Source: a virus (lineage: Duplodnaviria > Caudoviricetes). From it: 58,770 bases of DNA. How positions within the stretch are numbered: the stretch's first letter is position 1; the number at the start of each line of letters is the position of its first letter. Under the pieces are notes generated by a model. It made no database searches. It was not told where the DNA came from and saw only the letters and a list, made by a program, of their open reading frames with translations. The stretch is from positions 1-58,770 of the IMG/VR virus record IMGVR_UViG_3300045999_011096; one strand, written 5' to 3'. The position numbers and the translations under genes were made by a program. This document shows, piece by piece, positions 30,663-50,164 of the stretch.

Positions 30663-31575
30663 CGTTGCAGATCTAGATTGCATATATTTGACATATGACG
30701 AACCTGAAAAAGAACAGTATTGGATCAAAATTAAGAACATGGTGCCTTGGGCAAAACGGGTGGATGGCGTTAAAGGCAGCGATGCTGCTCACAAAGCGGC
30801 GGCCGCATCGAGTGATACTGATCGATTCATTCTCATTGATGGGGACAATATCCCCGATCCGTCGTTTTTTAATCAAACGCTTGTTCTTCCTGATCAAGAA
30901 TATGAGAACGCTGTGTTCCGGTGGCGGGCACGTAATCATGTCAATGGACTGATGTATGGTAACGGTGGCTTGAGTTCATGGACTCGGGACTATGTCATGA
31001 ACATGCGCACACACGAAAACACCGACGGACGCAATGAAACTGTGGTGGAGTTTTGTTTTGATCCCCGGTACTGGGCCATGCATGACTGCTATTCAACAAC
31101 ATATCCCAATCAATCACCATTCCACGCCTGGCGTGCCGGATTTCGCGAAGGTGTAAAAATGTGCTTGAATCAAGGTGCCAAGCCCACAGTGCAGGATTTC
31201 CGACAACGTGTGCATCAACGCAATCTTGACCACTTGACCATATGGCACAACGTAGGCACAGATGTTGAGCATGGCATGTGGTGCATTGCCGGCTCAAGAA
31301 TGGGCACTTACATGACCATGCTCACCAATGTAGACTATGTCATGGTGCAGGATTTTGAACGCCTGCGTGAGCTGTGGGACACGGTTCGAGACAGTGATCC
31401 TCGCTTGTTGGCCAATCGTGTGGCAGAAGAACTGGGCACCGCGCTGGATTTACCACTTGCAATGTTAGAAGCAGAGCAAAGTCGTTTTTTTAAACATCAC
31501 TATCGATCAAACTTTGTCAACCGTGGTATCATGGTCAGAGAAATAGATGTTATACGTCAACAAGAAGGCTGGTGA
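30649..31575 (+). CDS. GT-A fold (GT2-like) glycosyltransferase
   Basis: CIYLTYDEP, GVKGSDAAHKAAA, FILIDGDN (DxD), AWRAGFREGVKM. Confidence 0.7.
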   Translation: MKQIDVADLDCIYLTYDEPEKEQYWIKIKNMVPWAKRVDGVKGSDAAHKAAAASSDTDRFILIDGDNIPDPSFFNQTLVLPDQEYENAVFRWRARNHVNGLMYGNGGLSSWTRDYVMNMRTHENTDGRNETVVEFCFDPRYWAMHDCYSTTYPNQSPFHAWRAGFREGVKMCLNQGAKPTVQDFRQRVHQRNLDHLTIWHNVGTDVEHGMWCIAGSRMGTYMTMLTNVDYVMVQDFERLRELWDTVRDSDPRLLANRVAEELGTALDLPLAMLEAEQSRFFKHHYRSNFVNRGIMVREIDVIRQQEGW

Positions 31576-32260
31576 TTTTATTGGCCAATGCCAAATGAGT
31601 TCTTGGACCGTAATGGAATCCATCTCGTGCAAAGTCCAACTGAGTCTCTGGAGTGATCACATTTGTACCTAATTCAGCATAGTCAATTGCTTGATCGTGC
31701 CAGTTGTGTATAAAACTATGTACCAGTTTGGTATCACCTGCTAGGGCTTGTATTGTTTGAAAGTTTGCGAACCAATTTTGATAATTTTCTTCAGAAGAGT
31801 AAAGTGGCTCACATTCTGTGCGCTCATCATCATGCCAATCTGGCTGAGGTCGTTCTCTTCGATGACTGAATGTATAATGTATTACAGTGGCTCTGGGTTG
31901 AAATAATTGCAGTAGTTGTTGAAGTTTTCTTGCTATCCAATCGTTACTGGCACCGTTTAGGCTGAAATTCAGCACCTGATGAGACAGTTGTTGTTCTAAT
32001 ATATCTGTATAACGATCTTGAATGTTGTTGCCCAGCCCTAGTGTGAAGCTATCTCCCAGCACCAGAATAGCGTTGCGTTTAAATTTGTTAACAGAGTGAG
32101 TTCTAAACCCAACTTCGTTGAATTGATAATGCACAGGAGGATGTTGATCAAACAGTTGGCGATTGAAACAATGAGTCAGACTGTCCAAACCAAGACATTC
32201 AGTTTGTAAGTTAGCATAAAAAGGAATTGCTATATGTTGTTGAACAAAATCTATGTACAT
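31550..32260 (-). CDS. SGNH/GDSL-like protein
   Basis: FNEVGFR, LGDSFTLG (block I), NFSLNGASN (block II), DGFHYG (block V). Confidence 0.7.
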   Translation of the reverse strand: MYIDFVQQHIAIPFYANLQTECLGLDSLTHCFNRQLFDQHPPVHYQFNEVGFRTHSVNKFKRNAILVLGDSFTLGLGNNIQDRYTDILEQQLSHQVLNFSLNGASNDWIARKLQQLLQLFQPRATVIHYTFSHRRERPQPDWHDDERTECEPLYSSEENYQNWFANFQTIQALAGDTKLVHSFIHNWHDQAIDYAELGTNVITPETQLDFARDGFHYGPRTHLALANKITSLLVDV

Positions 32261-32274: not shown

Positions 32275-33366
32275 ATGAATGTTTTAATACTTACTCCTGA
32301 TCGCGTGGGGTCGACTTTATTGCAACGATTGATCACAATCTATGCAAACCTCAACGAAAACTACAGTCCGTTAACTATCAATTTACATGAATTGACCAAC
32401 GGATTGGTCACCTATGAGCATGATACATTCAAACAAAGTGTGCTGGGCAAAAAAGAAGGTGCATGGGGATATCATCAAACTCTGCAAACTGTTGCGGGCA
32501 TGATTGACACCTGTGGGCATGACGTAGTGAGTCGACTGGCACACTACCACATAAAAAATCGCCGCGACCCAACTGAAGACCAATTGGCGTTTTATCGATA
32601 TCTAAATGAAAATTTTTATATTATTGCGGCCCGCCGAGAAAATCTATTTGAACATGCCATGAGTTGGTGTATTGCTGTAGAGTCCAAGAAGTTAAATGTA
32701 TATTCGTTTGAAGAAAAATACAAAACCTACAACAATATTTTACAGAACCCTGTGACAGTACAGGCCGAAATGGTCGAAAAGTATTTGAATCAATACCAAG
32801 AATACATGGACTGGGTAGATGCTCATTTTCAAGTGAACAATTACTTTGAATACGAGCGAGACTTGCCCAACATAGAACAATACATATTGAATTTGCGAGT
32901 GTTCCAACAGCGCAAGAAACCCTTGACCTGGGCAGACCGTTGGGACATTTCTTGGGCTGATTGGAACCGTATGCACTATTTGTTGAGTCTGGTGCCATTT
33001 GATCATGAATTCAGTTCCGAGGAGACCAAGTTCATGAGCAACAACATTGACTTGTATACCAAGTGCAGAGTTGACATACAAGACTTACAAGATCTGGGAG
33101 TACTGGTTTCTGGTGTGCCTATCAAATTGCATACCTTGCATCAGAAGACACAACTGATTGCCAATGCTCCTGAATGTTTGTTGAGTTATAACAAATGGAC
33201 ACAACAAAATGAAACACCGTATGCTGTGCCTTATACTCCTGAACACATGAATCAAATTGCCCTGTCAGAACACATTAAATGGACACACGGGCACGGTAAT
33301 CGATTGAGTTACAGTGACATAAGTGAACAAAAGTTACTGAGCAGTGACCTCAAAGGATTTGAATGA
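32275..33366 (+). CDS. P-loop sulfotransferase-like protein
   Basis: LILTPDRVGSTLLQ (5'-phosphosulfate-binding-loop-like) and AARRENLFEHAMSW (3'-phosphate-binding-like, as in Stf0-type enzymes); YE.D motif. Confidence 0.55.
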   Translation: MNVLILTPDRVGSTLLQRLITIYANLNENYSPLTINLHELTNGLVTYEHDTFKQSVLGKKEGAWGYHQTLQTVAGMIDTCGHDVVSRLAHYHIKNRRDPTEDQLAFYRYLNENFYIIAARRENLFEHAMSWCIAVESKKLNVYSFEEKYKTYNNILQNPVTVQAEMVEKYLNQYQEYMDWVDAHFQVNNYFEYERDLPNIEQYILNLRVFQQRKKPLTWADRWDISWADWNRMHYLLSLVPFDHEFSSEETKFMSNNIDLYTKCRVDIQDLQDLGVLVSGVPIKLHTLHQKTQLIANAPECLLSYNKWTQQNETPYAVPYTPEHMNQIALSEHIKWTHGHGNRLSYSDISEQKLLSSDLKGFE

Positions 33367-34067
33367 TTATTGCATTCTATCCTGGTGCCGGAGGCAACAG
33401 ATACCTACAACGACTGTTGGGCAATGACTGGACCAAACCCCACACAAGTTACGACCAGATCAATACCACACAACAATATCAACATCGGTATCTATTGGAT
33501 AATATAGCACACACCAATTCACAACACATATTAACACACTGCATGAACAGCCAAAAGATACAGCAGACATTCCCTGGGCATTCAATTGTGTTTATTCGCA
33601 GCAACCTACGTGCAAGTTTGCAAAGAGAATGGGCACTGCATGGACATGAGCGATACATGAATCAAACTCAAAAGACCACTACTGTGTCCAGACTCGAGCA
33701 CTATCAGGCTTTTCGAGCATCCCACTGGCCAGATATTGCCACTGAAGACCAAATTGATAAATTGCCCGCAAACATCATGCAAGAAGTTCAAAATGATTAT
33801 GCCAAGGTGATGAATAATACAATTCATACAGTACCCGACACGCTGATGCAATTGACTCAAAACACAATTGACAAAATTAATTCAGCATACGAAATCATCA
33901 GATGGCATCAGGATTACTATGATCGATACCCTGTAGACTTTTCTGATGCTGAACAAATAATCGATGTAGATAGTTATCATAACGAATTTTGTTTGCTAAT
34001 GCAAATAGAATTTGGTCGATATCACAGTGAAATATTCAATCAGGTATGGGATGCTGTCAATGAGTAA
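33363..34067 (+). CDS. Divergent sulfotransferase/P-loop-like protein carrying an inserted WPD module
   Basis: IIAFYPGAGGNRYL start; internal HYQAFRASHWPDIATEDQIDKLPANIMQEV. Confidence 0.45.
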   Translation: MIIAFYPGAGGNRYLQRLLGNDWTKPHTSYDQINTTQQYQHRYLLDNIAHTNSQHILTHCMNSQKIQQTFPGHSIVFIRSNLRASLQREWALHGHERYMNQTQKTTTVSRLEHYQAFRASHWPDIATEDQIDKLPANIMQEVQNDYAKVMNNTIHTVPDTLMQLTQNTIDKINSAYEIIRWHQDYYDRYPVDFSDAEQIIDVDSYHNEFCLLMQIEFGRYHSEIFNQVWDAVNE

Positions 34068-35430
34068 TAAAAGTGTTTTTATGGGCTCAGCAGAGCAAAT
34101 GCGGGACAAACTGAGCAACGCATTATGCCTGGCCAAGTGGAAACAGGTCAGCTTTCACTTGCCCACTGGACTCAACAACTCATGTTACCACCCTCCACTG
34201 CATCAAATATCTGTGGAGGATTTGAAACGCACTGGTGGCCTGCACAACACAGAATACAAAAAACAGCAACGTAAGTTGATGTTATCCGGTCAACGGCCCA
34301 GTGAATGTCAGTACTGTTGGAACATGGAAGACCTTGGTGAACTCAGTGATCGACACTATAGATCAGGGGAGCCCTGGGCAGCAGTAGACTTTGAAAAGAT
34401 AAAGAATTCAACCGGAGACGAAGATGACGTCATACCTAGCTATGTTGAGGTTAATTTTAATAACGCTTGTAACCTTAAGTGCAGTTATTGTAGTCCCCAG
34501 TTTAGTTCTAGCTGGGCCGACGAATCTAACCGTCATGGGGCTTATCCTACTTCTGCACCACATAATGCTCCTGAACATTTTACAGGGGCTAGACGTGTCA
34601 TTCCCGCTAGGGATCATAATCCCTATGTTGAAGCATTTTGGTCTTGGTGGCCCACGCTTTACCCTCAGCTTCGACACTTCCGCATGACTGGCGGCGAGCC
34701 CTTGATGGACCGAAATACCTATCGAGTGTTTGACTATGTGTTGGCCCTGCCCAAGCTAGACTTGCATTTAAACGTAACATCAAACTTTTCAGTGGAAGAT
34801 GCGCTGTTTGAACGGTATTTGGATTATGTCAAACGCTTGTGCAATACCCAAATAGAACACTTCATGCAGTATGTGAGCCTGGATTCAGGCAACGGTTTTC
34901 AAGCTGAATATATCAGACACGGCATGAGCGCAGATCGAGTGATATCCAATGTCAATCGCTATCTACACGAAGCCCCGTACCGCAACAGTTTGACGTTCAT
35001 TATCACAATGAACAATCTCAGTGTCAGTGGATTCCGCGAATACATGGAATGGATCTTGAGATTGCGTGAAAGTTACAGTAAGACATATCAGCGTGTGTGG
35101 TTTGACACACCGGTGCTGCGACAGCCTGTGTGGCAGAGCCTGCAGATCTTGCCCGAAAGCTATGCAGTGAAACTGGAACAGTGTGCAGACTGGATGGACA
35201 CCAAAGTCACCACAGACCTACATGGATTCCGTGATTACGAAGTGCAGCGGCTACGTAGAGACATTGCTTGGATGCGCGAAGGACAGTGTCAAGACAATTC
35301 TCAAGCTAAGGCAGATTTCTATCGTTTCTTTAGTGAACATGATCGCCGCCGGGGCACAGATTTTTTACGTGCATTTCCTGAAATGAAAAGCTGGTGGCAG
35401 GAATGTGAGTATCATGCTCGGCAATCGTAA
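34060..35430 (+). CDS. Radical SAM protein 1 with N-terminal Twitch/SPASM-like domain
   Basis: CLAKW..SCYHPP..CQYCW; CNLKCSYC; TGGEP. ATG at 34060 overlaps the end of the upstream gene. Confidence 0.9.
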   Translation: MSNKSVFMGSAEQMRDKLSNALCLAKWKQVSFHLPTGLNNSCYHPPLHQISVEDLKRTGGLHNTEYKKQQRKLMLSGQRPSECQYCWNMEDLGELSDRHYRSGEPWAAVDFEKIKNSTGDEDDVIPSYVEVNFNNACNLKCSYCSPQFSSSWADESNRHGAYPTSAPHNAPEHFTGARRVIPARDHNPYVEAFWSWWPTLYPQLRHFRMTGGEPLMDRNTYRVFDYVLALPKLDLHLNVTSNFSVEDALFERYLDYVKRLCNTQIEHFMQYVSLDSGNGFQAEYIRHGMSADRVISNVNRYLHEAPYRNSLTFIITMNNLSVSGFREYMEWILRLRESYSKTYQRVWFDTPVLRQPVWQSLQILPESYAVKLEQCADWMDTKVTTDLHGFRDYEVQRLRRDIAWMREGQCQDNSQAKADFYRFFSEHDRRRGTDFLRAFPEMKSWWQECEYHARQS

Positions 35431-36499
35431 ATTAATTCTAGATACCCACAGTGAAATTTACAGCATGATTAAAGATCATGCTGATGATATATTTTGGGAC
35501 CTGGGCCAACACGTCAAAAAGAATCAAGTTGTGCCCGGTGCAATATACGTGATCGGGCGGGAACAGATACGACGGTTTGGTCAACAGGTACGTGACATAA
35601 TCAATCAACACACCGTCAAAGTTGTGTTCAGCAATCCGCACGAAGGATCTGAAACTTTGAAAAATCACTGCCATTACTATGGCATTGCGGATCTAGTGCA
35701 GAATAGAAAAATAATATTGGTCGGCGGCGGCGACATGGATCATTCCTGGCCGCACATGCGGTATGACAGTTTCTTGCCCAAAGTTTTGGATTACGACGAA
35801 AATATTGAAGCCATTCAACGCTATCAAGATCTCTACAGTGTCAACAGACCCTATAAGTTTTTGTTTTTGAATGGGCGCAGTCGACCTCATAGAAAAGGCA
35901 TGATTGATCGCTTGAGTGGCGTGCTGGATTCAGCAATATGGAGCAACTTGGATTCGGGAAATGGCGCAATAAAGACCCTGCCCCGTCAATATGAAGTAGA
36001 AAGATTTTCAGTAGATGTTGATGCCAGTCAGGACAGCTTTGTAAAACAGCAGGTGTTTTCACCGGGCCACTGGGGCGATGTTATAATTCGAGCTGAGCCA
36101 TACTTGGACACCTATTTTAGTTTGGTATCAGAAACTGTGCACAGCTACCCCCATAGTTTTAGAACAGAAAAGATTTGGAAACCCATTGCTGTGGGCCATC
36201 CCTGGATTGCTGTGGCCAATCAGGGTTTTTATCGGGACCTGCACAATTTGGGTTTTAGAACTTTTGGCGATGTCATTGATGAAAGTTTTGACAACATAGA
36301 AGATAATGATCAACGCCTGGAGAGAGTGGCTGCTGTGGTTGAAGATTTATGCCGCAAGGATCTAGCAAGTTTCCTTGAATTGTGTTATACTACTTGTAAA
36401 TACAATCAACAACACCTAGCCGAAATGCGTACACGGGTACGTGAAGAATTTCCCAGCCGCTTTTTTGAGTTTGTAAAACAATACCAGTTCCATGAATGA
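35414..36499 (+). CDS. Glycosyltransferase-like protein (GT-B, GT10-like TEK motif)
   Basis: FLFLNGRSRPHR; SLVSET...RTEKIWKPIAVGHP...GFRTF..IDESFD; paralogue of 46533-47690. Confidence 0.55.
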   Translation: MLGNRKLILDTHSEIYSMIKDHADDIFWDLGQHVKKNQVVPGAIYVIGREQIRRFGQQVRDIINQHTVKVVFSNPHEGSETLKNHCHYYGIADLVQNRKIILVGGGDMDHSWPHMRYDSFLPKVLDYDENIEAIQRYQDLYSVNRPYKFLFLNGRSRPHRKGMIDRLSGVLDSAIWSNLDSGNGAIKTLPRQYEVERFSVDVDASQDSFVKQQVFSPGHWGDVIIRAEPYLDTYFSLVSETVHSYPHSFRTEKIWKPIAVGHPWIAVANQGFYRDLHNLGFRTFGDVIDESFDNIEDNDQRLERVAAVVEDLCRKDLASFLELCYTTCKYNQQHLAEMRTRVREEFPSRFFEFVKQYQFHE

Positions 36500-37832
36500 T
36501 TTAGAATTTCGCCAGCAGGTGCTGGATGAGTTATCTCCAAGTTTTTGTGCAGCCAAGTGGTACAACGCCACTATTTGGTTGGGTTCTGGTATGACAACAA
36601 GCTGCCATCACCCGCCGGCCCATTTGGTGGACAAAGATAAAGTCCAGGCCAACCCTAGGCTGCTGCACAATACTGATCAAAAGAAAGAGGATCGTAGAAA
36701 AATGCTGGCAGGAGAACGTCCTGCAGGTTGTGAGTATTGCTGGAAAATTGAAGACATGGGTCGCGACGCTGTGAGCGATCGTGTTTACAAATCAAAGATC
36801 TACCCCATTGAGGCCTTGCATGAAGCTAGAAATACGCCCGCAGATCAAGATGTCAACCTTCGTACACTGGAAATTGCTTTTGATCGCACTTGTCAGTTTG
36901 CTTGCAGCTACTGTAATCCAGCTTTTTCTACTACATGGGTTAATGATATTCGACGCAATGGTCCCTATCAACGCCTGGAGTCAGACGGCCGTAACCATTT
37001 TACTCACACTCATGATTCTGCTCAACCCTACAGCATTAGAGAGTCTAATCCATATGTTGATGCTTTTTTTGCATGGTGGGAGTCGGATCTGCATCGTAGT
37101 TTACAGGAGCTCAGAATCACAGGAGGAGAGCCCCTCATGTCTCACCACACATGGCGACTCATTGACTGGTTCCGGGATAACCAGGGCCGTAGTAAAACTC
37201 GTCTTGCCATCAACTCAAATCTGGGCCCACAAGTCGACGTTTACCGCTTGATAGATTCAACTGCGGGCATGCCAGTGGAAATCTACACTTCAATGGAAGC
37301 TGTGGGCACACGAGCAGAATACATCAGAGATGGCCTGGATTATGCACTGTGGCGCCAAAATGTACAGGCCTTGTTGGATGCCGGAATCACTGTGCATTGT
37401 ATGTCGACCATTAATGCCTTGTGTCTTACCACCCTGCCACAACTGCTCGATCAATTATTAAAGTGGAAATTCACACACGGGCGTGATCGGATCAATTTTA
37501 CATTAAATATACTACGCTTTCCCAGCTTTCAATCGCCATTGGTACTGCCTGGCCATTTGCGTGAACAGTTCCGGCAGGATCTGGTTCAATGGATGGTTGC
37601 TCATCGCGGCTTAAGCTGTTTGCATGAACACGAAATCCGTCACACACAACGCTTGATTGACTATTTGGATGTGGTCAAAACTCCACACTCAGATGCATTT
37701 GACCTGCCACGGTTGCATAACGATTTCCGCGAATTCTACACACAGTATGATCAACGCAGAAACAAAAACTTTGCTGTAGAATTTCCCGAACTAACAGAAT
37801 GGTATGACTCAATACAAATACAACAGCACTGA
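36492..37832 (+). CDS. Radical SAM protein 2 with N-terminal Twitch/SPASM-like domain
   Basis: CAAKW..SCHHPP..CEYCW; CQFACSYC; TGGEP. Confidence 0.9.
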   Translation: MNDLEFRQQVLDELSPSFCAAKWYNATIWLGSGMTTSCHHPPAHLVDKDKVQANPRLLHNTDQKKEDRRKMLAGERPAGCEYCWKIEDMGRDAVSDRVYKSKIYPIEALHEARNTPADQDVNLRTLEIAFDRTCQFACSYCNPAFSTTWVNDIRRNGPYQRLESDGRNHFTHTHDSAQPYSIRESNPYVDAFFAWWESDLHRSLQELRITGGEPLMSHHTWRLIDWFRDNQGRSKTRLAINSNLGPQVDVYRLIDSTAGMPVEIYTSMEAVGTRAEYIRDGLDYALWRQNVQALLDAGITVHCMSTINALCLTTLPQLLDQLLKWKFTHGRDRINFTLNILRFPSFQSPLVLPGHLREQFRQDLVQWMVAHRGLSCLHEHEIRHTQRLIDYLDVVKTPHSDAFDLPRLHNDFREFYTQYDQRRNKNFAVEFPELTEWYDSIQIQQH

Positions 37833-39066
37833 TCTAGTACGAGCAACTGAATTAACTGAACGTGAACAGTTCTTGTTAAAAGATAGCAAAACCTTTTGCA
37901 TCTATCCTTGGATTCATTTGCATGCTTATCCCACTGGAGAAGCCTATCCCTGTTGTCATGCTGAAATGAAGCCAGGTGTGGTAGGCAACTGTAAAACCAA
38001 TACACTTGAAGAAATATGGCACGGCGAGCCTATGCAGAAGCTACGTGCGGATATGCTGAGTGAAACACCACATGCTGCCTGCACACGCTGTTATGAACAG
38101 GAAGAATCAGGATTCTTTTCGGGACGTAGATCAGCCAACAAACATCACGGACATCATATCAAGAAGCTGGCAGAAAATCCTTTTGAAATGACTTATTGGG
38201 ATATTCGTTTCAGTAATCTTTGTAACTTAAAGTGTCGTTCATGCGGGCATATCTTTAGTTCACAGTGGTATCAAGATCAAGCACGACTTGCAGGACCAGA
38301 ATGGAAAGAGCAGAACACAGTGCTTAACTATGCAGGACGCACAGAAACAGACATATGGTCGCAACTGGAACCACACCTGGACTATGTGGAGCAGATATAC
38401 TTTGCTGGTGGCGAACCATTATTAATGGAAGAACACTATAACATCCTAGAAGAACTTGTCAAAAGAGGCCGCTTTGATGTGCGACTGATCTACAACACAA
38501 ACTTCACGCATACAGATCTAAAAGGACGCAGTGTATTTGAATACTGGCGTCAATTTGACAGTGTAGCAGTGGGCGCCAGTTTAGATGGCATGGGACACCC
38601 TGCTGAATACATACGCAAGGGCACCCGCTGGTACGACGTTGTGCAAAATCGTCATCAAATGATTGCAACATGTCCCAACGTAGATTTTTATATAAGTCCC
38701 ACGCTCAGTATATTGAATGCTTGGCATTTACCGCACTTTCATCGGGAATGGGTTGCAGCCGGCCTAATTCGCGCACAGGATCTGAATGTAAATATACTGC
38801 AAGATCCCCCATACTATCGCATAGACATTGCACCTGCTGAATACAAACAAAGACTGGAAGAGAAATACCGCAAGCATTTAGACTGGATGAGCGATCGAGA
38901 TCCACTAGGGCGTGCTACACAGGGATTTGAATCGGCCATTACATTTATGAACTCAACAAATAACACACACCTAATAGACTCATTCTGGCGCAGAACAACG
39001 GAATTGGATTCGATCAGAAATGAATCTTGGCAAAATGTATTACCAGAATTAGCGGCGCTAAAATGA
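37804..39066 (+). CDS. Radical SAM protein 3 with N-terminal Twitch/SPASM-like domain
   Basis: CIYPW..PCC..GNCKTNTLEEIW..CTRC; CNLKCRSC; AGGEP. Confidence 0.9.
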   Translation: MTQYKYNSTDLVRATELTEREQFLLKDSKTFCIYPWIHLHAYPTGEAYPCCHAEMKPGVVGNCKTNTLEEIWHGEPMQKLRADMLSETPHAACTRCYEQEESGFFSGRRSANKHHGHHIKKLAENPFEMTYWDIRFSNLCNLKCRSCGHIFSSQWYQDQARLAGPEWKEQNTVLNYAGRTETDIWSQLEPHLDYVEQIYFAGGEPLLMEEHYNILEELVKRGRFDVRLIYNTNFTHTDLKGRSVFEYWRQFDSVAVGASLDGMGHPAEYIRKGTRWYDVVQNRHQMIATCPNVDFYISPTLSILNAWHLPHFHREWVAAGLIRAQDLNVNILQDPPYYRIDIAPAEYKQRLEEKYRKHLDWMSDRDPLGRATQGFESAITFMNSTNNTHLIDSFWRRTTELDSIRNESWQNVLPELAALK

Positions 39067-39182
39067 GCACCTGGAAAGAATTTTACAATCACATACGAGA
39101 CGCTTCATGGCCTGATTGTGACGTAGAATCGGACTTTGCTGATTTGCCTGATAGAATTCAAAAAGAATGCCTGACATTATGA
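39063..39182 (+). CDS. 39-aa standalone WPD-module peptide, not in the ORF track (MSTWKEFYNHIRDASWPDCDVESDFADLPDRIQKECLTL)
   Basis: Hand-translated. ATGA overlaps at both ends (39063-39066 and 39179-39182); similar to a module inside 33363-34067. Confidence 0.8.
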   Translation: MSTWKEFYNHIRDASWPDCDVESDFADLPDRIQKECLTL

Positions 39183-39760
39183 ACGGTCTAGCACTAGGTT
39201 GTAGCCACACAGCAGGAGTTGGGGTTGATCCCTCAGAATGCTATGTGTCGTTGTTGGCTAAACACTATAACATTGACATTACTAATGCCGGAGTCCCAGG
39301 CGGCAATTCAAATCACAATATTAAAACTCTGGTAGCCCACATGCGCAACACCCCGCCTAAGTTTGTTATAGCACAATGGCCCAATCCTGCCAGGCTCACA
39401 GTTTGGCATGGTGATCGCAACAACAACGAAAATATAAACAATGCCAGCACTGCATTTCGTTCTTTAATGACTGCGGGAGAAAAAAACTTCATGCAACCTT
39501 GGTTACAAAATATTATAACAGCAGACACATTGTGTAAACTGGCAGATGTGCCGGTTGTTCACATTCTATTGGAAAATTTAGATTTCAAATATGTTGATAT
39601 ATTGAACGATCAAGGTATAGAGTTACACATGGATTTAAAACTAGAAGGCCGGACTTGGTTGTTTGATTCGCAAGGGTCGGACAATTTGCACCATTCAGCT
39701 CGATGTCATGCCCAATGGGCCGAAAGATTAATTGGATTATTAAATGAAATTACCACATGA
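39179..39760 (+). CDS. SGNH/GDSL-like protein
   Basis: LGCSHTAG, NAGVPGGNS, DNLHHS; ATG at 39179 is coupled to the micro-ORF. Confidence 0.7.
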   Translation: MNGLALGCSHTAGVGVDPSECYVSLLAKHYNIDITNAGVPGGNSNHNIKTLVAHMRNTPPKFVIAQWPNPARLTVWHGDRNNNENINNASTAFRSLMTAGEKNFMQPWLQNIITADTLCKLADVPVVHILLENLDFKYVDILNDQGIELHMDLKLEGRTWLFDSQGSDNLHHSARCHAQWAERLIGLLNEITT

Positions 39761-40964
39761 TAAATTTTGCGTATTGCCCTGGGTGAGCTTAGAGGCTTCG
39801 CCCATTGGCACAGTGCGCCCATGCTGTCTTGCCGACGATGAACTGACGGATGACACAGGCAAGAAGTTCAGCTTGCTCACAGCCAACTTCAAAGACATAC
39901 AAAACAGTGCTGGCATGAAACGACTGCGTGAACAGTTTCTAGCAGGTGAACAGCCGCAAACATGTCGTAAGTGTTGGAATGAAGAACGTGCTGGGCGCAC
40001 ATCAAAACGTATGCATACCTTGGACAGAATGAAGCATATGGGAATCTCAAGTGACTGGACAGCAGACGCCAAGCCCTTGATGTTTCTGGATCTCAAACTG
40101 GGCAACATCTGTAACTTGAAATGTAGAATATGCGGATCCTGGAGTTCAAGTCAATTTGCTTCAGAAGAAATCGCCTGGACGCACCCCGACAAACGCCGAG
40201 ACTCTCACGCCTATCAAATGCTACGTGCCGGAGCCTGGCCCAGAGACAATCCGCAGTTCTGGCAGCAGATTGAACAACATCTAGCAGATATTCGCTACAT
40301 TGAATTCACCGGTGGGGAGCCATTCATGATTGCCGAACACTTTGACATGTTGCAAGGCATAGTGGATTGTGGCATTGCTGGTCAAGTTGAAATACACTAC
40401 AACACCAACGGCACCCAGTATCCTGAGCAGGCCGAACAGATTTGGCAGCATTTCAAAACTGTGGAAATTGCGTTTTCAATAGATGATGTTGGTGAGCGTT
40501 TTGAATATCAACGCACCAATGCTCACTGGACAGAAGTTTGTGCAAACATGGATCGATTTCGTGATCTCAAAGAAATTTATCCCAATATACAATTGCAAAT
40601 TTGCACCACTGTGAATGTGTTCAATGTACGTTATTTGGATCAGATAGCCGACTGGATATATCGCAATCGTGAAGGTTTCAACTTTGTGTACTGGAACATG
40701 ATGCACGATGCTTGGTATTTCAGTATTGCCACACTGCCTGACTCTGCCAAAGCCTCAGTGGCTGAACATCTGCGCACGGCCCCGGTGCCAGATCTTTATC
40801 GCGCTGAGTTTGATCGTATTGTTGAATTCATGCTGAAAGGAGCCAGCACCAGCGGTGACATGTTGAGAATGAAAATAGCAGATCTGGATCGTAAAAGACA
40901 ACAGAATTTTGCCACCGTGGCCCCAGAAATGGCTGCACTGATTGACTATGACTTCACCGCCTGA
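39744..40964 (+). CDS. Radical SAM protein 4 with N-terminal Twitch/SPASM-like domain
   Basis: CVLPW..PCC..CRKCW; CNLKCRIC; TGGEP. Confidence 0.9.
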   Translation: MKLPHDKFCVLPWVSLEASPIGTVRPCCLADDELTDDTGKKFSLLTANFKDIQNSAGMKRLREQFLAGEQPQTCRKCWNEERAGRTSKRMHTLDRMKHMGISSDWTADAKPLMFLDLKLGNICNLKCRICGSWSSSQFASEEIAWTHPDKRRDSHAYQMLRAGAWPRDNPQFWQQIEQHLADIRYIEFTGGEPFMIAEHFDMLQGIVDCGIAGQVEIHYNTNGTQYPEQAEQIWQHFKTVEIAFSIDDVGERFEYQRTNAHWTEVCANMDRFRDLKEIYPNIQLQICTTVNVFNVRYLDQIADWIYRNREGFNFVYWNMMHDAWYFSIATLPDSAKASVAEHLRTAPVPDLYRAEFDRIVEFMLKGASTSGDMLRMKIADLDRKRQQNFATVAPEMAALIDYDFTA

Positions 40965-42243
40965 CACCCTGTGTCTTGCACCCTGGGTGCACACATACTT
41001 GAGTCCGCAAACAGAACGGCGTATGTGCTGTGCGTCACGTGAACCTGCACAAAACTTTGAGCAATACATAGACACTGCTGGGGGCACTGGACGATATATC
41101 CCCATCACACTGGAACAGCATTGGAATGGGGAACACATGCGGTCAGTGCGCAGACGTATGCTGGCCGGAGAAACTCTGCCCGAGTGCGAAGTGTGCAATG
41201 ATAAACTTCTTAATACCAATGTCTACCGCACATACTTTGATCATTTATTCAAGCACAAATTAGAGGATGTATATGCAAGCACAGATGCTTCGGGGGCCAC
41301 GAGCATGGTGCCTGTTTCGTGGGATTATAGATTCAGCAACCTATGTAACTTTAAATGCAGGACCTGCGGCGACATGTTATCCAGTGCCTGGGAAACTGAA
41401 GAAAAAACTCACAACATGGTTGACTGGAACAATCCAAAAAATAATTGGATGCGATCAGATATACGTTCCGAAATCGCACACTTTCAAGAGAATCAAGTTG
41501 AAGCCGAATTTGCTGCCGCCGTGGAGCGACACACAGTGGAGGAAGTCTATTGGGTTGGCGGAGAGCCCTTGATGTACAAACAACACTGGCACTACATGCC
41601 AAGAATAATTGAATTAGGAGATGGAAACCGTGTTTACGCTAGATACAATACTAATCTTAGCCGTGTGGAGTATCGTGGTATTAATTTATATCGTGATATT
41701 TTGCTGCATCTTCGTGACTGGCAAATCTGCGCCAGCCTCGACGGAACAGGCGCCACAGGGGAATATATACGAACGGGCCTGGATTACACCACCTTTTTGA
41801 ACAACTTTGAGCAAGGGGTGAAACTGTCCACTCATGCCCGACAGATGCGCTTGGACTTTACACTCACGTTGCCGGGCATGACCGAAGTAGACAACATGAC
41901 AGCACTGGCCGCAGAAATGGGTGTAGAAATGTTGGCCAAGGTCATATTCAGTTTCTCACCGGACATCATTATGAGTCCCCTGGCTTTGCCCCGAGCACTT
42001 TTAGACGCATGGGTTGACGAACTAGCCAGCCGCAGCCAAGGTGCCATGCGTGATGTACTGCTGCAATTAAAAACTCGCCCCACATTTGAACAACAGTGGC
42101 CAGATACTTATCGCGCGGAGCTTGCAAAAGGCAAAGCTCGTGTGTTAAAATTAGAACAAATACGAACACAGAGCGTTACAATGACTGATATTCTAGCACA
42201 AAGACCAGATGTGCTGAAATGGTGGATGGAAATTGAAGCTTGA
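40948..42243 (+). CDS. Radical SAM protein 5 with N-terminal Twitch/SPASM-like domain
   Basis: CLAPW..MCC..CEVC; CNFKCRTC; VGGEP. Confidence 0.9.
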   Translation: MTSPPDTLCLAPWVHTYLSPQTERRMCCASREPAQNFEQYIDTAGGTGRYIPITLEQHWNGEHMRSVRRRMLAGETLPECEVCNDKLLNTNVYRTYFDHLFKHKLEDVYASTDASGATSMVPVSWDYRFSNLCNFKCRTCGDMLSSAWETEEKTHNMVDWNNPKNNWMRSDIRSEIAHFQENQVEAEFAAAVERHTVEEVYWVGGEPLMYKQHWHYMPRIIELGDGNRVYARYNTNLSRVEYRGINLYRDILLHLRDWQICASLDGTGATGEYIRTGLDYTTFLNNFEQGVKLSTHARQMRLDFTLTLPGMTEVDNMTALAAEMGVEMLAKVIFSFSPDIIMSPLALPRALLDAWVDELASRSQGAMRDVLLQLKTRPTFEQQWPDTYRAELAKGKARVLKLEQIRTQSVTMTDILAQRPDVLKWWMEIEA

Positions 42244-43273: not shown

Positions 43274-43371
43274 ATTGGTTAAAACGCATTTATGCCAGAA
43301 TAACATTAGAAATTCGATATCGTCGAAAATTAAAAGAATTACGCAAGCGAGATCCATTTATCTACAAATGA
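43270..43371 (+). CDS. 33-aa basic peptide ending RDPFIYK, not in the ORF track
   Basis: MNWLKRIYARITLEIRYRRKLKELRKRDPFIYK; ATGA overlaps at both ends. Confidence 0.8.
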   Translation: MNWLKRIYARITLEIRYRRKLKELRKRDPFIYK

Positions 43372-44846
43372 ACATCCTAGGTATCAGCGCCGGCTTTCAT
43401 GATGCCGCGGCCACAGTAATCTCCCCTGGCGGGGAGATTCTGTTCGCTGGTCATTCAGAGCGTTATTCAAAAAACAAAAACGATGCTGACTTTTGCCAAG
43501 GTCTATTAGACGATGTATTAGAATATGGATTAGATGTGGTTGGGTATTACGAGCGGCCCTGGGCAAAACAACTACGACAATGGTACGCAGGCCAAGGCAT
43601 TGAATGGAACAAGTTAACAACTCGACAAATATTACGCCAACAGTTGGGTGGGAAAATTGATCCTGAGCAAGTGCACAGTTTCAATCATCATCTAAGTCAC
43701 GCGGCCGGGGGATTTCAAACCTCGCCATTTGATCGTGCCACAGTTGTGGTAATAGATGCTGTGGGTGAATTTGAAACAATAACAATCTGGGGAGCTGAGT
43801 ATGACAAAAAAGGTCGAGCTGTTTACCGTAAACTTTGGCAGCAAAACTATCCGCATTCAATTGGATTATTCTATAGTGCAGTTACTAGCCGCGTTGGCCT
43901 ACGCCCACTAGACGAAGAGTATATCTTGATGGGCATGGCTGCTTATGGTGAGCGTGGATTTGGCGAACTCATGAGTCAGGATCTGGTGGAGGACGCATGG
44001 AAAATCAAATTTAAAAAGAATCTACATACGGGCCTAGAACAAAAATATCTGTCATACATAAGTGATGTTGATCTAGCAGCTGGCGCACAAGACCTTGTGG
44101 AAGATCTTGTGATGAATGTCATGCACCGAGCCCGCGGGCATGGTTGGAGCAAGAATCTTGTATACATGGGTGGTGTTGCGCTGAATTGCAGTGCCAATAG
44201 GAGGTTGGGTGAACTATTTGACAATATCTGGATTATGCCTTGTCCTGGTGATGCTGGCAGTAGCCTGGGTGCCGCGGCGCTGGTGCTGGGCACTAGGATT
44301 AATTGGCGCAATGCTTATCTGGGTCATGATATTCCTGGTGCTTATCCAGTTAATGCCATACTGGATCATTTGGTGGATCGCGGTATTGTTGGCGTTGCTA
44401 GTGGCCGCGCTGAGTTTGGCCCCCGTGCCCTAGGCAATAGAAGTTTGTTGGCCGACCCCAGAGGTTCTACTATCAAGGAGCAAGTAAATGAAATCAAACG
44501 AAGACAACAGTTTCGACCCTTTGCGCCTGTCATACTGGAAGAGCTGGCTCACCAGTATTTTGACATGCCTAGGGGTTGGCATCACAGTAGGTATATGCAG
44601 TCAGTCGCTCGTTGCCGCAGTCCTGAGCTATTTCCTGCTGTCGTTCACGCTGATGGCACTAGTCGCGTACAAACTGTAGCCAGAGACGGATCAGGCATCA
44701 GAGAACTTTTAGAGAAGTGGTTTGTGATGACCGGTTGTCCCATGTTGCTCAACACCAGTTTGAACATACGTGGAGAGCCCATGGTCAACGATCGTGCGGA
44801 TGCAGATAGATTTGAAGCACTGTATGGTGTAAAGGTGTGCAGTTAA
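43368..44846 (+). CDS. O-carbamoyltransferase (NodU/CmcH/TobZ family)
   Basis: ILGISAGFHDAAA, HHLSHAA, GGVALNC, GDAGSSLGAA, EFGPRALGNRS, FRPFAP, LLNTSLN. Likely start is the ATG at 43368. Confidence 0.95.
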   Translation: MNILGISAGFHDAAATVISPGGEILFAGHSERYSKNKNDADFCQGLLDDVLEYGLDVVGYYERPWAKQLRQWYAGQGIEWNKLTTRQILRQQLGGKIDPEQVHSFNHHLSHAAGGFQTSPFDRATVVVIDAVGEFETITIWGAEYDKKGRAVYRKLWQQNYPHSIGLFYSAVTSRVGLRPLDEEYILMGMAAYGERGFGELMSQDLVEDAWKIKFKKNLHTGLEQKYLSYISDVDLAAGAQDLVEDLVMNVMHRARGHGWSKNLVYMGGVALNCSANRRLGELFDNIWIMPCPGDAGSSLGAAALVLGTRINWRNAYLGHDIPGAYPVNAILDHLVDRGIVGVASGRAEFGPRALGNRSLLADPRGSTIKEQVNEIKRRQQFRPFAPVILEELAHQYFDMPRGWHHSRYMQSVARCRSPELFPAVVHADGTSRVQTVARDGSGIRELLEKWFVMTGCPMLLNTSLNIRGEPMVNDRADADRFEALYGVKVCS

Positions 44847-44871
44847 TGGATTACAAAAAATTTCAAAAGAA

Positions 44872-45450
44872 ATGAATCAACCACATTGTTACGTGATTGC
44901 ACACGCCACATCAAGAGTGGTGGGCGACTGTGTAAAGAGTTTGACTGCTCACAATTGGCGTTATGAAATATTTCCAGCAGTGATGTCAGTTACTGCGGCA
45001 GACTGGGAAAAGGCCGGTGTTGTCATGAGTACCGGGGGCAAAATGCGTCAACGACCCGGGGCACAAGGTTGTTGGATGAGTCATTGGCAACTATGGAACC
45101 GTTGTGTAAACACTAACCAACCCTTGGTTATACTGGAACATGATGCAGTGGTTCAAGGCCCTTGGCCCCAAGACCTTGACATTGAAACACAGCTGGTCAA
45201 ACTGTATCGCACAGCCGAATGCAAGGTCAAACCTGAGTTTGGTCGCTGGAGCAAAGGGTCGCATGCTTACACTGTGACTCCTGTACAGGCAGCACGATTG
45301 ATTGCTTTTGCTCAAGCAACGCCAGCACAAGCCTTGGACAAACACCTGGGGGATGGTGTATTATCGTGGACTTTTTACAGTCAGGATCTTGTGACGCTGA
45401 ATCCCAGACGCGGGCCCAGTATCACCAGTCCAATACCGCGTCAGAGATAA
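44872..45450 (+). CDS. Glycosyltransferase family 25-like
   Basis: GAQGCWMSHWQLW, LVILEHDA, GSHAYTVTP..A..LI. Confidence 0.75.
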   Translation: MNQPHCYVIAHATSRVVGDCVKSLTAHNWRYEIFPAVMSVTAADWEKAGVVMSTGGKMRQRPGAQGCWMSHWQLWNRCVNTNQPLVILEHDAVVQGPWPQDLDIETQLVKLYRTAECKVKPEFGRWSKGSHAYTVTPVQAARLIAFAQATPAQALDKHLGDGVLSWTFYSQDLVTLNPRRGPSITSPIPRQR

Positions 45451-46478
45451 GTCTCTAATCCACCACGTCGACGAATGTCTTGTGTGCAGCATGAGATGCC
45501 ACCATCCCAGAAGTAACTGTGACGCAGTTCTGAGATGATAGGCTCAATACGGTGTCGGCGGCAGTAGTCAAAAACTTCGCGATTGTAGGCACTAAAGATC
45601 ACATGTGATTCGTCCAGCACAAGACAGTTAACATCAAACACAGTTTCGGCAACAAAACCAGTCCACTTGGTTAGATAGGTGTTCACAAACTCTGTGAATT
45701 CAGGTGTAGGCGTTTGCCCTTGCACGTACCAGGCCCCGGGGTTTTGCTCGTACTTGAACTTGCCCACTTCCATTGCGGCCCAGATTGAACTGTCCCATAT
45801 CTTGCACACGTCCCATCCTGGAAAGTCCGCAGCCAAATTCAAGTTAACATCGTGTTTGCTTGACAACAACACACCGGGCTTTAAGATAGCAAACACTGCA
45901 TCTCCGTGTCCATCTGTAATGGCTTCGTGGATGCGATATTCTGGGCCCAGCACGTTGTCCACAATCCAACGAGTCTGCTCAGGCTTTAAGAAGTCTGAGT
46001 TGTCAAAGAATACATCACGACCCACACGCACAATACAACTTGCTGATGCTTGGTTAAGAATGCAATTCTCATCCCAGCCTGTGGGCCCATGCGGATTGAT
46101 CACTGTGCCGCCCTGTGATTGGTACTCGTTGCACAAGCCATCTAGTTCCGGCATGGCCAACACACGTAGCAGTTTGTCGCCTAAGGTGATTTGCCAGTCT
46201 CTTGGTGTCAACGGAGGTAGTGGTGCACCTCTACCGTAGATCTGTCCGCGGATAAACTGGTCTCGATCAGGTAGATCAGGACGACGTACTCGAGCACCAA
46301 ACTGTTCTATTGTTTTCTGCAAGTTAACAAGATCTTCTTCAGTTTCAGAAAGGATTTGTTGTAACTGATTACGCACCTGTGCGTTCTCGATGAAGTCAAA
46401 ATAGTCTGGGCTGTACGCACGGCCGACTATGACTTCTTCAAGGGGTTGCCAACTTGTATAACTGTTAATAGGATTCAT
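45441..46478 (-). CDS. Amidinotransferase (glycine/inosamine-phosphate amidinotransferase family)
   Basis: NSYTSWQPLEEVIVG, PRD, GHGD, FDVNCLVLD, FWDGGISCCTQDIRR (with the catalytic Cys region). Confidence 0.85.
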   Translation of the reverse strand: MNPINSYTSWQPLEEVIVGRAYSPDYFDFIENAQVRNQLQQILSETEEDLVNLQKTIEQFGARVRRPDLPDRDQFIRGQIYGRGAPLPPLTPRDWQITLGDKLLRVLAMPELDGLCNEYQSQGGTVINPHGPTGWDENCILNQASASCIVRVGRDVFFDNSDFLKPEQTRWIVDNVLGPEYRIHEAITDGHGDAVFAILKPGVLLSSKHDVNLNLAADFPGWDVCKIWDSSIWAAMEVGKFKYEQNPGAWYVQGQTPTPEFTEFVNTYLTKWTGFVAETVFDVNCLVLDESHVIFSAYNREVFDYCRRHRIEPIISELRHSYFWDGGISCCTQDIRRRGGLETYL

Positions 46479-49512: not shown

Positions 49513-50164
49513 ACATTTTTCAGATTCTGAATATATTTTAAATTTTGGAGATAGCTGGGCTCATGCAGCCGATGCTGGACACCAGGACGGTTACTCATAT
49601 CTAATGAGTTGTTCTCTAAGGTTAACTTGGAAAGATTATAGTGTGCCTAGCAGTAGTGTAGGAAACATGATTTTGCAGTTACAAAATTTCTTAAAGACGG
49701 ACTACAATCAGAATCATAATTATACTGCATTATTTTTTGTAACTGCACAGGAACGGCAGTTGATGTTTGATGCAAACGGGAATCCAGTTGACTATCATCC
49801 TCAACAGCACGGAGAGTACTATCAAAAATACTACAATCATCGATTAGGAAATTATAGCCTTAACACTGCAATGATTACACTACAATCTATATGTCGTAGA
49901 TACAAGATAAAGGATCATTACTTACTTGGTTGGCAATTGCCAATGCTATGGCACGAAGTTGATGTAACTAAGTTCTACGACTACGGCCGTAGCAGTGCTA
50001 TAAACATGTTTGCTGGTCCAGATGCTAATTTAATTGATCTAATGACTGACAACCATCCTTGTCTAATATCATCAACAAACGGCCACCCGAGCAAAGAAGG
50101 GCACCGCAAGATTTATGAAGAATGGCTCAAATGGATACAGCAACCGCATCAAGTACTTGACTAG
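49505..50164 (+). CDS. SGNH/GDSL-like protein
   Basis: FGDSWAH at the N-terminus and NGHPSKEGH at the C-terminus. Confidence 0.7.
   Translation: MSKHFSDSEYILNFGDSWAHAADAGHQDGYSYLMSCSLRLTWKDYSVPSSSVGNMILQLQNFLKTDYNQNHNYTALFFVTAQERQLMFDANGNPVDYHPQQHGEYYQKYYNHRLGNYSLNTAMITLQSICRRYKIKDHYLLGWQLPMLWHEVDVTKFYDYGRSSAINMFAGPDANLIDLMTDNHPCLISSTNGHPSKEGHRKIYEEWLKWIQQPHQVLD

Follow-up and report, generated by a model that had tools for sequence, protein, structure and literature searches.

The window analysed here is a 58,770-nucleotide stretch of DNA from a virus of the Caudoviricetes (positions 1 to 58,770 of IMG/VR record IMGVR_UViG_3300045999_011096). On its plus strand a 39-codon open reading frame, whose translation is MSTWKEFYNHIRDASWPDCDVESDFADLPDRIQKECLTL followed by a stop, lies between a radical SAM gene and an SGNH gene. 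An initial annotation had described this micro-ORF as coupled by ATGA on both sides, and the coupling is as described: the upstream gene ends in a TGA that shares the ATGA at 39063-39066 with the micro-ORF start codon, and the downstream gene begins with an ATG at 39179 that shares the ATGA at 39179-39182 with the micro-ORF stop codon. This ATG is the same conserved start that the downstream gene has in a related locus, L074. The features of this region are as follows.

37804..39066, plus strand: upstream gene for a 420-aa N-twitch radical SAM protein (NF033640, 397.8 bits; cut-off 170)
39063..39182, plus strand: micro-ORF, 39 aa, read here as what an in-frame internal deletion left of a gene for a ~460-aa N-twitch radical SAM protein, full-length orthologues of which occupy the same slot
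39063..39170, plus strand: codons 1-36, a complete WP mini-domain corresponding to the N-terminal extension of the parent enzyme (HMM 83.5 bits)
39171..39182, plus strand: last three codons (L, T, L) and stop, matching the 3' end of the parent gene
39179..39760, plus strand: downstream gene for a 193-aa SGNH/GDSL-like protein (weak Pfam Lipase_GDSL match, E 0.0036)

The 420-aa protein has a Pfam SPASM match at residues 32-97, before Radical_SAM, and the window's five intact radical SAM neighbours of the micro-ORF match NCBIfam NF033640 (N_Twi_rSAM, twitch domain-containing radical SAM) at 276-398 bits. Homologues of carbamoyltransferases, GT25 and amidinotransferases, which are typical of small-molecule or glycan tailoring, are also among the neighbours. 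The micro-ORF itself gave no match in Pfam and PHROG scans. A search of the literature full text for phage radical SAM, twitch and glycan systems found nothing relevant.

Comparison of the locus with its relatives

Among 80 loci related to the window through the upstream radical SAM gene, tblastn placed the peptide directly 3' of the upstream-gene homologue in four (L015, L043, L058 and L074; E 1e-12 to 8e-16). All four share the start overlap ...AAAATGAGC, and in every one of these jumbo-phage contigs the peptide opens a longer ORF of 458-461 aa; micro-ORF codons 1-36 are 54-69% identical to the N-terminal 36-42 residues of these proteins. The L074 gene order (rSAM420 / rSAM460 / SGNH / rSAM406 / rSAM433) is that of the window with the gene intact, and the SGNH gene 3' of it is 88% identical to the window's. 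The 460-aa ORF of L074 is a member of NF033640 (223 bits, cut-off 170); because the model begins at its residue 62, the retained residues 1-36 lie outside the model, so that the micro-ORF keeps none of the model positions and only the lost parent was a member. At the other end, the L074 protein finishes in YNLTL with its TGA overlapping the SGNH ATG, and the window reads ...ECLTL with the same overlap; a KYNLTL C-terminus is found in 8 of 70 full-length homologues. Since the micro-ORF thus consists of parent codons 1-36 plus the last three codons and stop, we infer that it is the in-frame scar of a deletion of about 421 codons, with the junction between 39170 and 39174. Lacking both CxxxCxxC and the twitch cysteines (its two Cys are C19 and C36), this remnant is therefore not an enzyme.

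Further sequences bear on the state of the gene elsewhere. A 535-nt contig from an RNA-library run (X20) is 97% identical to the window over 39174-39399, and its upstream part is 255 nt unlike the window, of which the last 30 nt are identical to the end of the radical SAM gene in L074. That run has a contig on the SGNH gene and none on the micro-ORF, a pattern with no bearing on micro-ORF transcription. Seventy of the 103 longer profile matches are 450-471 aa long with WP within the first 25 residues, and all 70 have the CxxxCxxC motif. Comparison of these relatives indicates that the full-length radical SAM form is the norm and the "free" state secondary. At loci with the SGNH gene only, the two flanking genes are joined directly by ATGA and the scar is absent.

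These findings are consistent with the following course of events. In an ancestral lake jumbo phage the genes for the 420-aa radical SAM protein and the SGNH protein would have been separated by a further N-twitch radical SAM gene, coding for ~460 aa, and the first ~40 residues of that enzyme would have formed a small independent domain (the jumbo phage lineage described in PMC12619734, up to 307 kb, is a different one). An internal deletion of ~421 codons would then have taken out the entire catalytic body, fusing codons 1-36 in frame to the final three codons and stop and keeping both ATGA overlaps. Ribosomes finishing the upstream gene would still translate 39 codons and then re-initiate on the SGNH gene; because they can do so, the scar would be tolerated and probably still translated, and this explanation need not give the free peptide any specific role. 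We consider it very probable that the micro-ORF is the deletion scar of a radical SAM gene and that the piece retained is a genuine domain which has been added repeatedly to phage enzymes. A tightly coupled micro-ORF that resembles a hidden peptide gene can thus be all that remains, still in frame, of an enzyme gene lost by deletion, and here it was comparison with relatives that settled its origin.

Some observations run against a simple scar. No direct parent is among the sampled sequences, and the micro-ORF is only 54-69% identical to intact N-termini, as against 88% identity between the flanking SGNH gene and its L074 counterpart, so the region is mosaic or the scar has evolved faster. In addition, decay is absent: the micro-ORF keeps 19 of 22 positions (counted by eye) that are invariant among three intact orthologues, all family-invariant residues and both coupling overlaps. 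Finally, a 71-aa protein from 647-nt contigs (P0008) has its N-terminal 55 residues joined to a C-terminal FPWLVDEF... tail and, judged from its sequence, looks like a second independent in-frame deletion product. Taken with the stable occurrence of the short form in lake-water runs (below), the lack of decay, the kept overlaps and P0008 mean that the module could be kept on purpose.

The WP mini-domain and the enzymes that carry it

The retained piece has the consensus W..FY..[IV][KR]D.SWPDC..E.DF..LP..IQ.EC; a variant related to it reads DY..aGp.WP.Y. A profile search among 1.84e9 representatives returned 613 clusters (50%-identity representatives) at E<=1e-3, 44 of them at E<=1e-10. A 32-row alignment has Y8, W16, P17, L28 and P29 in every row, and conservation reaches 90% or more at I32 and E35, so that the pattern Y-x3-R-x3-WPD-x9-LP-x2-I-x2-E noticed in the initial annotation proves to be the conserved core of a large family. 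The micro-ORF has all of the invariant columns and scores 83.5 bits against the family profile, which includes the micro-ORF itself. In orthologous copies (L095 rows left out) synonymous sites are saturated (pS 0.73-0.97) and pN is 0.09-0.29, which places the conservation at the protein level. AlphaFold2 with the 32-row alignment gives the 39 residues a mean pLDDT of 84 with helices at 3-11, 22-26 and 30-38; the mini-domain is accordingly predicted to be an autonomous compact fold of three short helices, with a packing core of W4/F7/Y8, W16-P17, F25, L28-P29 and I32 and with C19 and C36 in contact. Together the comparisons indicate that the WP mini-domain is a real protein module of ~40 aa, of which we found no earlier description: the literature full text yielded none, and searches for SWPDC, SWPEC and "WPDC motif" gave unrelated acronyms only.

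No model of the mini-domain was found in Pfam, PHROGs or NCBIfam (the NCBIfam scan was made with full-length L074, and the micro-ORF itself was scanned against Pfam and PHROGs), and Foldseek matched the micro-ORF model to nothing in the PDB at E<=10. Its best Foldseek match is UniProt A0A6J5LZ38 (BFVD; TM 0.85 normalised to the query, rmsd 0.6 over 35 columns, 37% identity), with an E-value of only 0.034; this protein (228 aa, unannotated and uncharacterised) comes from an uncultured Caudovirales phage, evidently carries the module as well and offers no functional information. An ESM Atlas search by features gave best scores of 0.85-0.86, to unnamed clusters and below the tool's meaningful level, and a word-index search with the peptide gave the peptide alone at near lengths and no candidate at longer ones, though the family is large by profile search. 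The strict pattern has 66 true matches in IMG/VR and 0 in 185,579 prokaryote genomes, and the mini-domain seems, from these counts, to be confined to viral contigs. GenBank phages gave no match to blastn of 37800-41000 and none at E<=0.01 to tblastn of a 51-aa module protein (P0058). Among five near-complete relatives of ~340 kb, module copies (E<=0.01) are absent in one and number 2-4 in the other four.

The window itself has a second copy, and several of its genes belong to families in which other members carry the module:

33363..34067, plus strand: 234-aa protein, family unknown, with an internal insertion of the mini-domain (AlphaFold2 pLDDT 88.8)
33681..33806, plus strand: the mini-domain copy in that protein, residues 107-148, part of a ~55-70-residue insertion (HMM 82.3 bits)
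34054..35430, plus strand: N-twitch radical SAM gene adjoining the 234-aa protein (NF033640, 305.2 bits)
35405..36499, plus strand: 364-aa protein, module absent; its family carries a C-terminal mini-domain elsewhere (BLASTP to P0022, E 6e-17)
31550..32260, minus strand: SGNH hydrolase, module absent (weak Pfam GDSL match; BLASTP to a module-bearing L089 protein, E 6e-27)
45441..46478, minus strand: amidinotransferase homologue, module absent (PDB matches to L-arginine:glycine amidinotransferase, E 4e-15, and StrB1, E 4.8e-12)

The ungapped alignment of the micro-ORF to the 234-aa protein, first noticed in the initial annotation, is significant: BLASTP gives 11 of 30 identities without gaps to residues 112-141 (E 2e-5 as a single comparison), and when all 58,770 bases of the record are searched in six frames this copy is the only second match (E 0.0104). 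The profile of the module orthologues and an independent profile of the 234-aa family agree by hhalign with a probability of 94.7% (E 5.9e-8, 33 columns). In an alignment of the 234-aa family 13 rows have the mini-domain, and because six homologues lack it (L015, L016, L021, L022, L038 and L077) we regard it as an insertion. In four of these six (L021, L022, L038 and L077) the module-less 234-aa-like domain is fused N-terminal to the radical SAM protein in ORFs of 644-656 aa. The 234-aa model has nothing in the PDB at E<=0.001 by Foldseek; weaker fold matches, mainly to sulfotransferases and P-loop kinases (E 0.046-0.4), are a lead only. A HAYQMLRAGAWPR stretch in the 406-aa radical SAM protein (40212) has the first half of the motif only and, because its HMM E-values are above 6, was set aside as chance or too distant.

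Elsewhere the mini-domain lies at either terminus or in internal loops of enzymes from at least ten families, which include radical SAM, SGNH, methyltransferase, DUF6492 and amidinotransferase-like proteins. The copies in the 149 top matches are mostly C-terminal (84), the others being internal (41) or N-terminal (26); 59 of the matches belong to the family of the 364-aa protein. The partner families with several members number at least 13. The module heads the 458-471-aa radical SAM proteins, yet its partners are mostly not radical SAM enzymes, and it is inserted in internal loops in at least four enzyme families. The SGNH family of 31550..32260 has members elsewhere with the mini-domain inserted, and when the 45441..46478 protein is aligned with a module-bearing L090 protein (BLASTP E 3e-55) the module falls opposite a gap in the window protein. 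The suggestion that a portable domain might exist here is therefore strongly supported, and on a far wider scale than could be seen in the window. From these alignments it appears that uncultured aquatic phages have repeatedly added the mini-domain to unrelated group-transfer and tailoring enzymes, at their ends or in surface loops.

Possible roles of the domain and of its free copy

A docking or tethering role for the mini-domain is a plausible candidate, suggested by architecture alone. Dockerins, the docking domains of PKS/NRPS systems and RiPP recognition elements are short self-folding units on the termini of varied enzymes, and the mini-domain is like them in being a short unit, predicted to fold by itself, at the termini of many enzymes; it is unlike them in that it matches no solved structure, lies in internal loops as well and is seemingly viral only. 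Rickettsia palindromic elements are selfish DNA inserted in frame into many unrelated genes. The mini-domain resembles these as a segment of ~40 residues within many unrelated proteins of one genome group, but differs in being conserved at the protein level (the pS and pN values above), and the two copies in the window share only 11 of 30 residues. We tentatively suggest that it may be an adaptor that tethers enzymes to a shared partner, scaffold protein or common polymer substrate, although the odds are somewhat against it. A complex prediction with two copies of the module lent no support (score 0.01, mark 0.42), which is not evidence either way. The domain is the more useful result, with 613 clusters and neither a database model nor a solved structural relative: that it has been grafted again and again onto enzymes of at least ten families, internal loops included, marks them as belonging to a single process of uncultured lake phages, and used as pull-down bait it could give a handle on the targets of phage radical SAM and tailoring enzyme arrays.

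We also considered whether the free 39-aa copy is a selected, functional small protein, possibly a soluble docking or competitor peptide that binds the partner of the fused copies, for instance the 234-aa protein's copy or a scaffold. The free copy is a whole domain with a predicted fold of its own, both translational-coupling overlaps are retained, a second protein in the window bears the module, and P0008, the possible second deletion product, has kept it too. In 19 lake-water runs from 2020-2025, moreover, the short form makes up 99-100% of the words sampled; each of these runs is marked as a possible source, and they may all belong to a single campaign. However, it forms a single 90% cluster of two sequences on 19+2 contigs, and the sole other DNA copy found, on an independent metagenome contig with the same junction, is 98.4% identical to the window over 3,468 nt; all strains in which the short form was found are lake strains nearly identical to the window (98.4% or more). 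Selection after the deletion is not measurable, because the two short forms are near-identical and differ by one non-synonymous change (N9T). A complete free small ORF is present in none of the 66 module-bearing IMG/VR loci, where five small ones all touch the locus end, and the 15 of 149 top matches below 100 aa are mostly on contigs of 504-1,550 nt. Two deletions would both be in frame by chance with a probability of about 1 in 9, and retention of the frame also preserves expression of the downstream gene, so survival of the scar is explained without peptide function. We therefore regard a function of the free peptide as improbable. The proposal that the domain exists both free and fused holds only in a formal sense: on the deletion-scar reading the free form is a remnant, and it was found in these strains only.

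A broader proposal would join the two ideas: the mini-domain would be a virus-specific docking tag that aquatic jumbo phages place at the ends or in loops of tailoring enzymes and by which they recruit these enzymes (radical SAM, methyltransferase, SGNH, amidinotransferase, sulfotransferase-like, DUF6492 and the 364-aa family) to one scaffold or polymer substrate, and the free copy, still translated through coupling, would compete for that site and tune assembly. We think this distinctly unlikely as a whole; if true, it would mean a tailoring assembly built by phages from otherwise unrelated enzymes.

Two other roles offered for the peptide in the initial annotation were not supported by comparison. 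As a small peptide with Trp and two Cys among five radical SAM genes, it might be a RiPP-like precursor modified by the adjacent radical SAM/SPASM-type enzymes, but its orthologues are N-terminal domains of an enzyme, and the module is also fused to methyltransferases, SGNH hydrolases, DUF6492 proteins, amidinotransferase homologues and others. Conservation extends over the whole length where a leader and variable core would be expected, I or V replaces both Cys in the 234-aa family, Pfam scans (E<=0.01) found no PqqD/RRE-type domain in the neighbouring enzymes, and the neighbours noted above typify tailoring of small molecules or glycans; we judge such a substrate very unlikely indeed. An ACP/PCP-like carrier of pathway intermediates, for which the small, acidic and helical character of the module might speak, has next to nothing to commend it, since none of the invariant columns (Y, W, P, L and P) is a Ser, Lys or Cys for attachment, the 39-42 residues form three short helices as against the ~80-aa four-helix bundle of the ACP/PCP type, and no Pfam carrier-domain match was found. 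Finally, it is scarcely conceivable that the short ORF is an artefact of assembly or gene calling, even though the record is a metagenomic fragment (17% complete), since gene calls on 19 contigs, drawn from five source collections, gave the identical 39-aa product, the independent metagenome contig has the same junction, and in each of three DNA runs (2020, 2023 and 2025), any of which may be the source sample, one contig spans 38700-39600 and bridges the junction with 0 differences.

The micro-ORF and its parent gene

The enzyme genes that follow the virion genes form a block, and the micro-ORF (39 encoded residues) is part of it. CheckV estimates the completeness of the window at 17%, and the relatives found through its genes are 320–353 kb long, some with terminal repeats, so that the window represents part of a jumbo-phage genome; lake water is the source label on the sequencing runs that contain it. 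In the block are five radical SAM genes, all intact, that match NCBIfam NF033640 ("N-terminal twitch" radical SAM) at 276–398 bits, two SGNH-type hydrolases, a carbamoyltransferase, a GT25 protein and an amidinotransferase homologue, and several of its further proteins have no family match. The features nearest the micro-ORF are as follows.

33363-34067 (+), 234-aa protein of unknown family
34054-35430, NF033640 radical SAM paralogue
36492-37832, NF033640 radical SAM paralogue
37804-39066, NF033640 radical SAM paralogue (420 aa)
39063-39182 (+), micro-ORF, followed by an SGNH gene with its ATG at 39179
39744-40964, NF033640 radical SAM paralogue (406 aa)
40942-42243, NF033640 radical SAM paralogue

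In these five near-tandem paralogues the SPASM/twitch cysteines are N-terminal to the radical SAM core (Pfam), the reverse of the usual order, and the corresponding block of related phages has as many as seven or eight of them. Directly upstream of the block, amid virion and tail-fibre-like genes, is a single ORF of 4,727 codons (10446-24629). The carbamoyltransferase, GT25 and amidinotransferase homologue genes lie near the micro-ORF block at 43275-46478 and 50127-52149, together with aminotransferase- and epimerase-like genes judged from translations only, and these tailoring genes suggest a sugar or small-molecule tailoring pathway.

The initial annotation described the micro-ORF as coupled to both neighbours, and indeed its start codon overlaps the stop codon of the upstream 420-aa radical SAM gene, and its own stop codon the SGNH ATG. 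With the 420-aa protein as bait, 214 of 218 IMG/VR candidate stretches encode relatives, and we retained the best 80 of these loci (76–93% identical to the bait). The peptide directly follows the 420-aa gene in four of the 80 (L015, L043, L058 and L074; tblastn), with the same overlap sequence, and there it forms the first ~37 residues of an ORF of 458–461 aa. The L074 ORF is an NF033640 member in which the model begins at residue 62; the peptide is therefore an N-terminal extension of the parent enzyme, and the parent gene belongs to NF033640 whereas the stump does not. Mapping the gene order across all loci reveals variable content in the slot that separates the 420-aa from the 406-aa radical SAM gene; in most loci the slot is empty.

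Content of the slot in related loci
SGNH gene only: L003, L018, L022, L059, L070
458-aa gene only: L015, L043, L058
Paralogues (38–40% identical) of the parent: L013, L052, L063, L076, L080, L081
460-aa gene, then an SGNH gene sharing 88% identity with that of the window: L074

The slot has the character of a cassette site (~7250-8700 in loci L003-L082; 39063-39760 in the window) whose genes are joined by conserved ATGA overlaps.

Given its 460-aa gene and similar SGNH gene, L074 represents the window arrangement with the gene intact. Its protein ends ...KKYNLTL, with the TGA overlapping the SGNH ATG, and the window peptide ends ...QKECLTL with the same overlap; thus the micro-ORF comprises codons 1–36 and the last three codons of the parent, with about 421 codons gone in frame. 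A broader search gave 103 longer proteins bearing the peptide, of which 70 are 450–471 aa with a CxxxCxxC motif, and eight of the 70 end in KYNLTL. The SGNH-only loci have their flanking genes joined directly by ATGA with no stump, so ordinary slot turnover is clean and the window carries a different, internal deletion. Finally, one freshwater RNA-library run yielded a 535-nt contig that differs from window 39174-39399 at six positions; its upstream part has 255 letters unlike the window, the last 30 of which are the 3' end of an L074-type radical SAM gene. There is therefore a close relative in which the gene is intact beside the same SGNH gene, and the junction falls between 39170 and 39174. 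These alignments show the micro-ORF to be the product of an internal deletion in a radical SAM gene. Contigs of such a library run, possibly from DNA carry-over, are 95–97% identical to the SGNH gene (window 39174-39600) and belong to a strain whose radical SAM gene upstream of it is full-length.

Spread of the short form and selection on it

An identical 39-aa product is found on 19 contigs from five source collections, and a one-residue variant (N9T) on two more. A degenerate pattern for the junction was absent from IMG/VR and matched once in the JGI metagenome collection, on a contig that shares 98.4% identity with the window across 3,468 nt. Among 23 listed runs, 19 are lake water (2020–2025) and contain 99–100% of the sampled words of 38700-39600; all 19 were flagged as possible sources and may stem from one campaign. 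In each of the three DNA runs compared, a single contig bridges 38700-39600 with zero differences. The short form is real, recent and confined to one lineage.

Between the 36 window codons and intact orthologues, synonymous sites are saturated (pS 0.75–0.97) and pN is 0.17–0.29, against 0.09–0.25 among intact genes; these values reflect a long history inside the full-length gene, not the period after the deletion. A single non-synonymous change separates the two short forms. All family-invariant residues are retained in the stump, as expected under a recent event or continued constraint alike. The stump is probably translated by coupling and tolerated, the in-frame state being favoured, we infer, because it keeps termination-reinitiation onto the gene that follows. 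P0008, a 71-aa protein on 647-nt contigs in which the N-terminal 55 residues are joined to a C-terminal FPWLVDEF... tail, possibly represents another in-frame deletion, independent of the first. Taken as a micro-protein gene, the micro-ORF is an ordinary deletion scar; beyond that it points to a so far undescribed domain family, apparently restricted to viruses.

The WP mini-domain and its partner enzymes

The ~40-aa unit in codons 1–36, which we call the WP mini-domain, recurs in the 234-aa protein, as first proposed from an ungapped alignment. The similarity (residues 112–141, 11/30 identities, pairwise E 2e-5) exceeds chance, and with orthologues added on both sides hhalign gives a probability of 94.7% (E 5.9e-8); within the record this protein is the sole other match (E 0.01). 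Orthologues of the 406-aa radical SAM protein share with it a conserved 'HYQMLRAGAWPR(D/E)N' stretch (window 40200-40250) resembling the first half of the module, without significance against the module profile (HMM E above 6).

A profile of 42 columns built from seven copies, searched against 1.84 billion 50%-identity representatives, gave 613 protein matches at E<=1e-3, of which 44 reach E<=1e-10. In the best 149 of the 613 the copies are C-terminal (84), internal (41) or N-terminal (26), with two copies in five proteins. This search and list of fusion partners, suggested at the outset, thus returned many homologues and, once the module was masked and the remainders clustered, at least 13 multi-member partner families among the best 149. 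The earlier idea of a portable domain existing both free and fused stands as to portability, across many enzyme families, but the free copy is a deletion stump of one lineage. The retained part is shown to be a conserved domain that is promiscuously grafted and is predicted to fold autonomously.

Partner families among the best 149 proteins
~400-aa family homologous to the window 364-aa protein (E 6e-17): 59 members
DUF6492: 11 members
234-aa family: 10 members
MTS-type methyltransferases: 9 members
~250-aa family of no known function: 8 members
SGNH hydrolases: 8 members
Smaller groups: radical SAM, Asp/Asn beta-hydroxylase-like and Methyltransf_24 proteins

Copies of the module are embedded in SGNH hydrolases, homologues of the window protein 31550-32260 (E 6e-27), and in amidinotransferase homologues of window 45441-46478 (E 3e-55), where the module faces a gap in the window protein; one copy stands at the N-terminus of a methyltransferase. 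Five near-complete relatives hold 3, 4, 0, 4 and 2 copies (E<=0.01), scattered over their genomes. In the 234-aa family it is part of an insertion, present in 13 aligned rows and missing from six homologues. Four of these six are fused to the neighbouring 472-aa-type radical SAM enzyme (ORFs of 644–656 aa; L021:1620-3566, L022:1684-3609, L038:1609-3555 and L077:1269-3191), an N-terminal fusion which suggests that the overlapping window genes 33363-34067 and 34054-35430 work together.

AlphaFold2 (39 residues with 32 aligned rows) predicts helices at 3–11, 22–26 and 30–38 with a mean pLDDT of 84. Foldseek found no match to this model in the PDB and, in BFVD, only an uncharacterised uncultured-phage protein, evidently a further carrier of the module. 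The module is not represented by any model in Pfam, NCBIfam or PHROGs. The back-translated pattern WPDC-x2-E-x2-F-x2-LP hit 67 IMG/VR loci, 66 with the module by HMM; among prokaryote genomes (596 Gb) it hit six, and no module is present at any of these (the best, at 17 bits, shares the fixed residues only); a 51-aa module protein had no match in the GenBank phage collection (tblastn, E<=0.01). The family appears to be confined to uncultured, mostly aquatic phages.

Putative role and a sister motif

We tentatively suggest that the WP mini-domain could be an adaptor through which various tailoring enzymes reach a shared partner or substrate, because enzymes unrelated in fold and chemistry carry it at either terminus or within loops, and because its conserved residues look structural, not catalytic. 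Its behaviour would resemble that of known docking or adaptor mini-domains, none of which it matches. A carrier of pathway intermediates, also proposed initially, does not hold for a unit of 39–42 residues and three predicted helices whose invariant columns are Y, W, P, L and P. A RiPP-like substrate, proposed from the Trp and Cys residues beside radical SAM genes, fails on conservation over the whole length and orthology to an enzyme N-terminal domain.

In the paralogues with 38–40% identity to the parent enzyme, the N-terminus bears a sister motif once or twice, DY..aGp.WP.Y......qkEI, which is related to the module at an hhalign probability of 88.6% (E 2.7e-6). In the form DY..aGp.WP.Y.df..G......qkEI it stands once or twice in tandem at the N-termini of radical SAM paralogues and also in a P-loop-like protein; the loci are L013:8458-10044, L080:7212-8861, L076, L052, L063, L058:9840-11252, L007:7245-8510 and L086:3668-4000.
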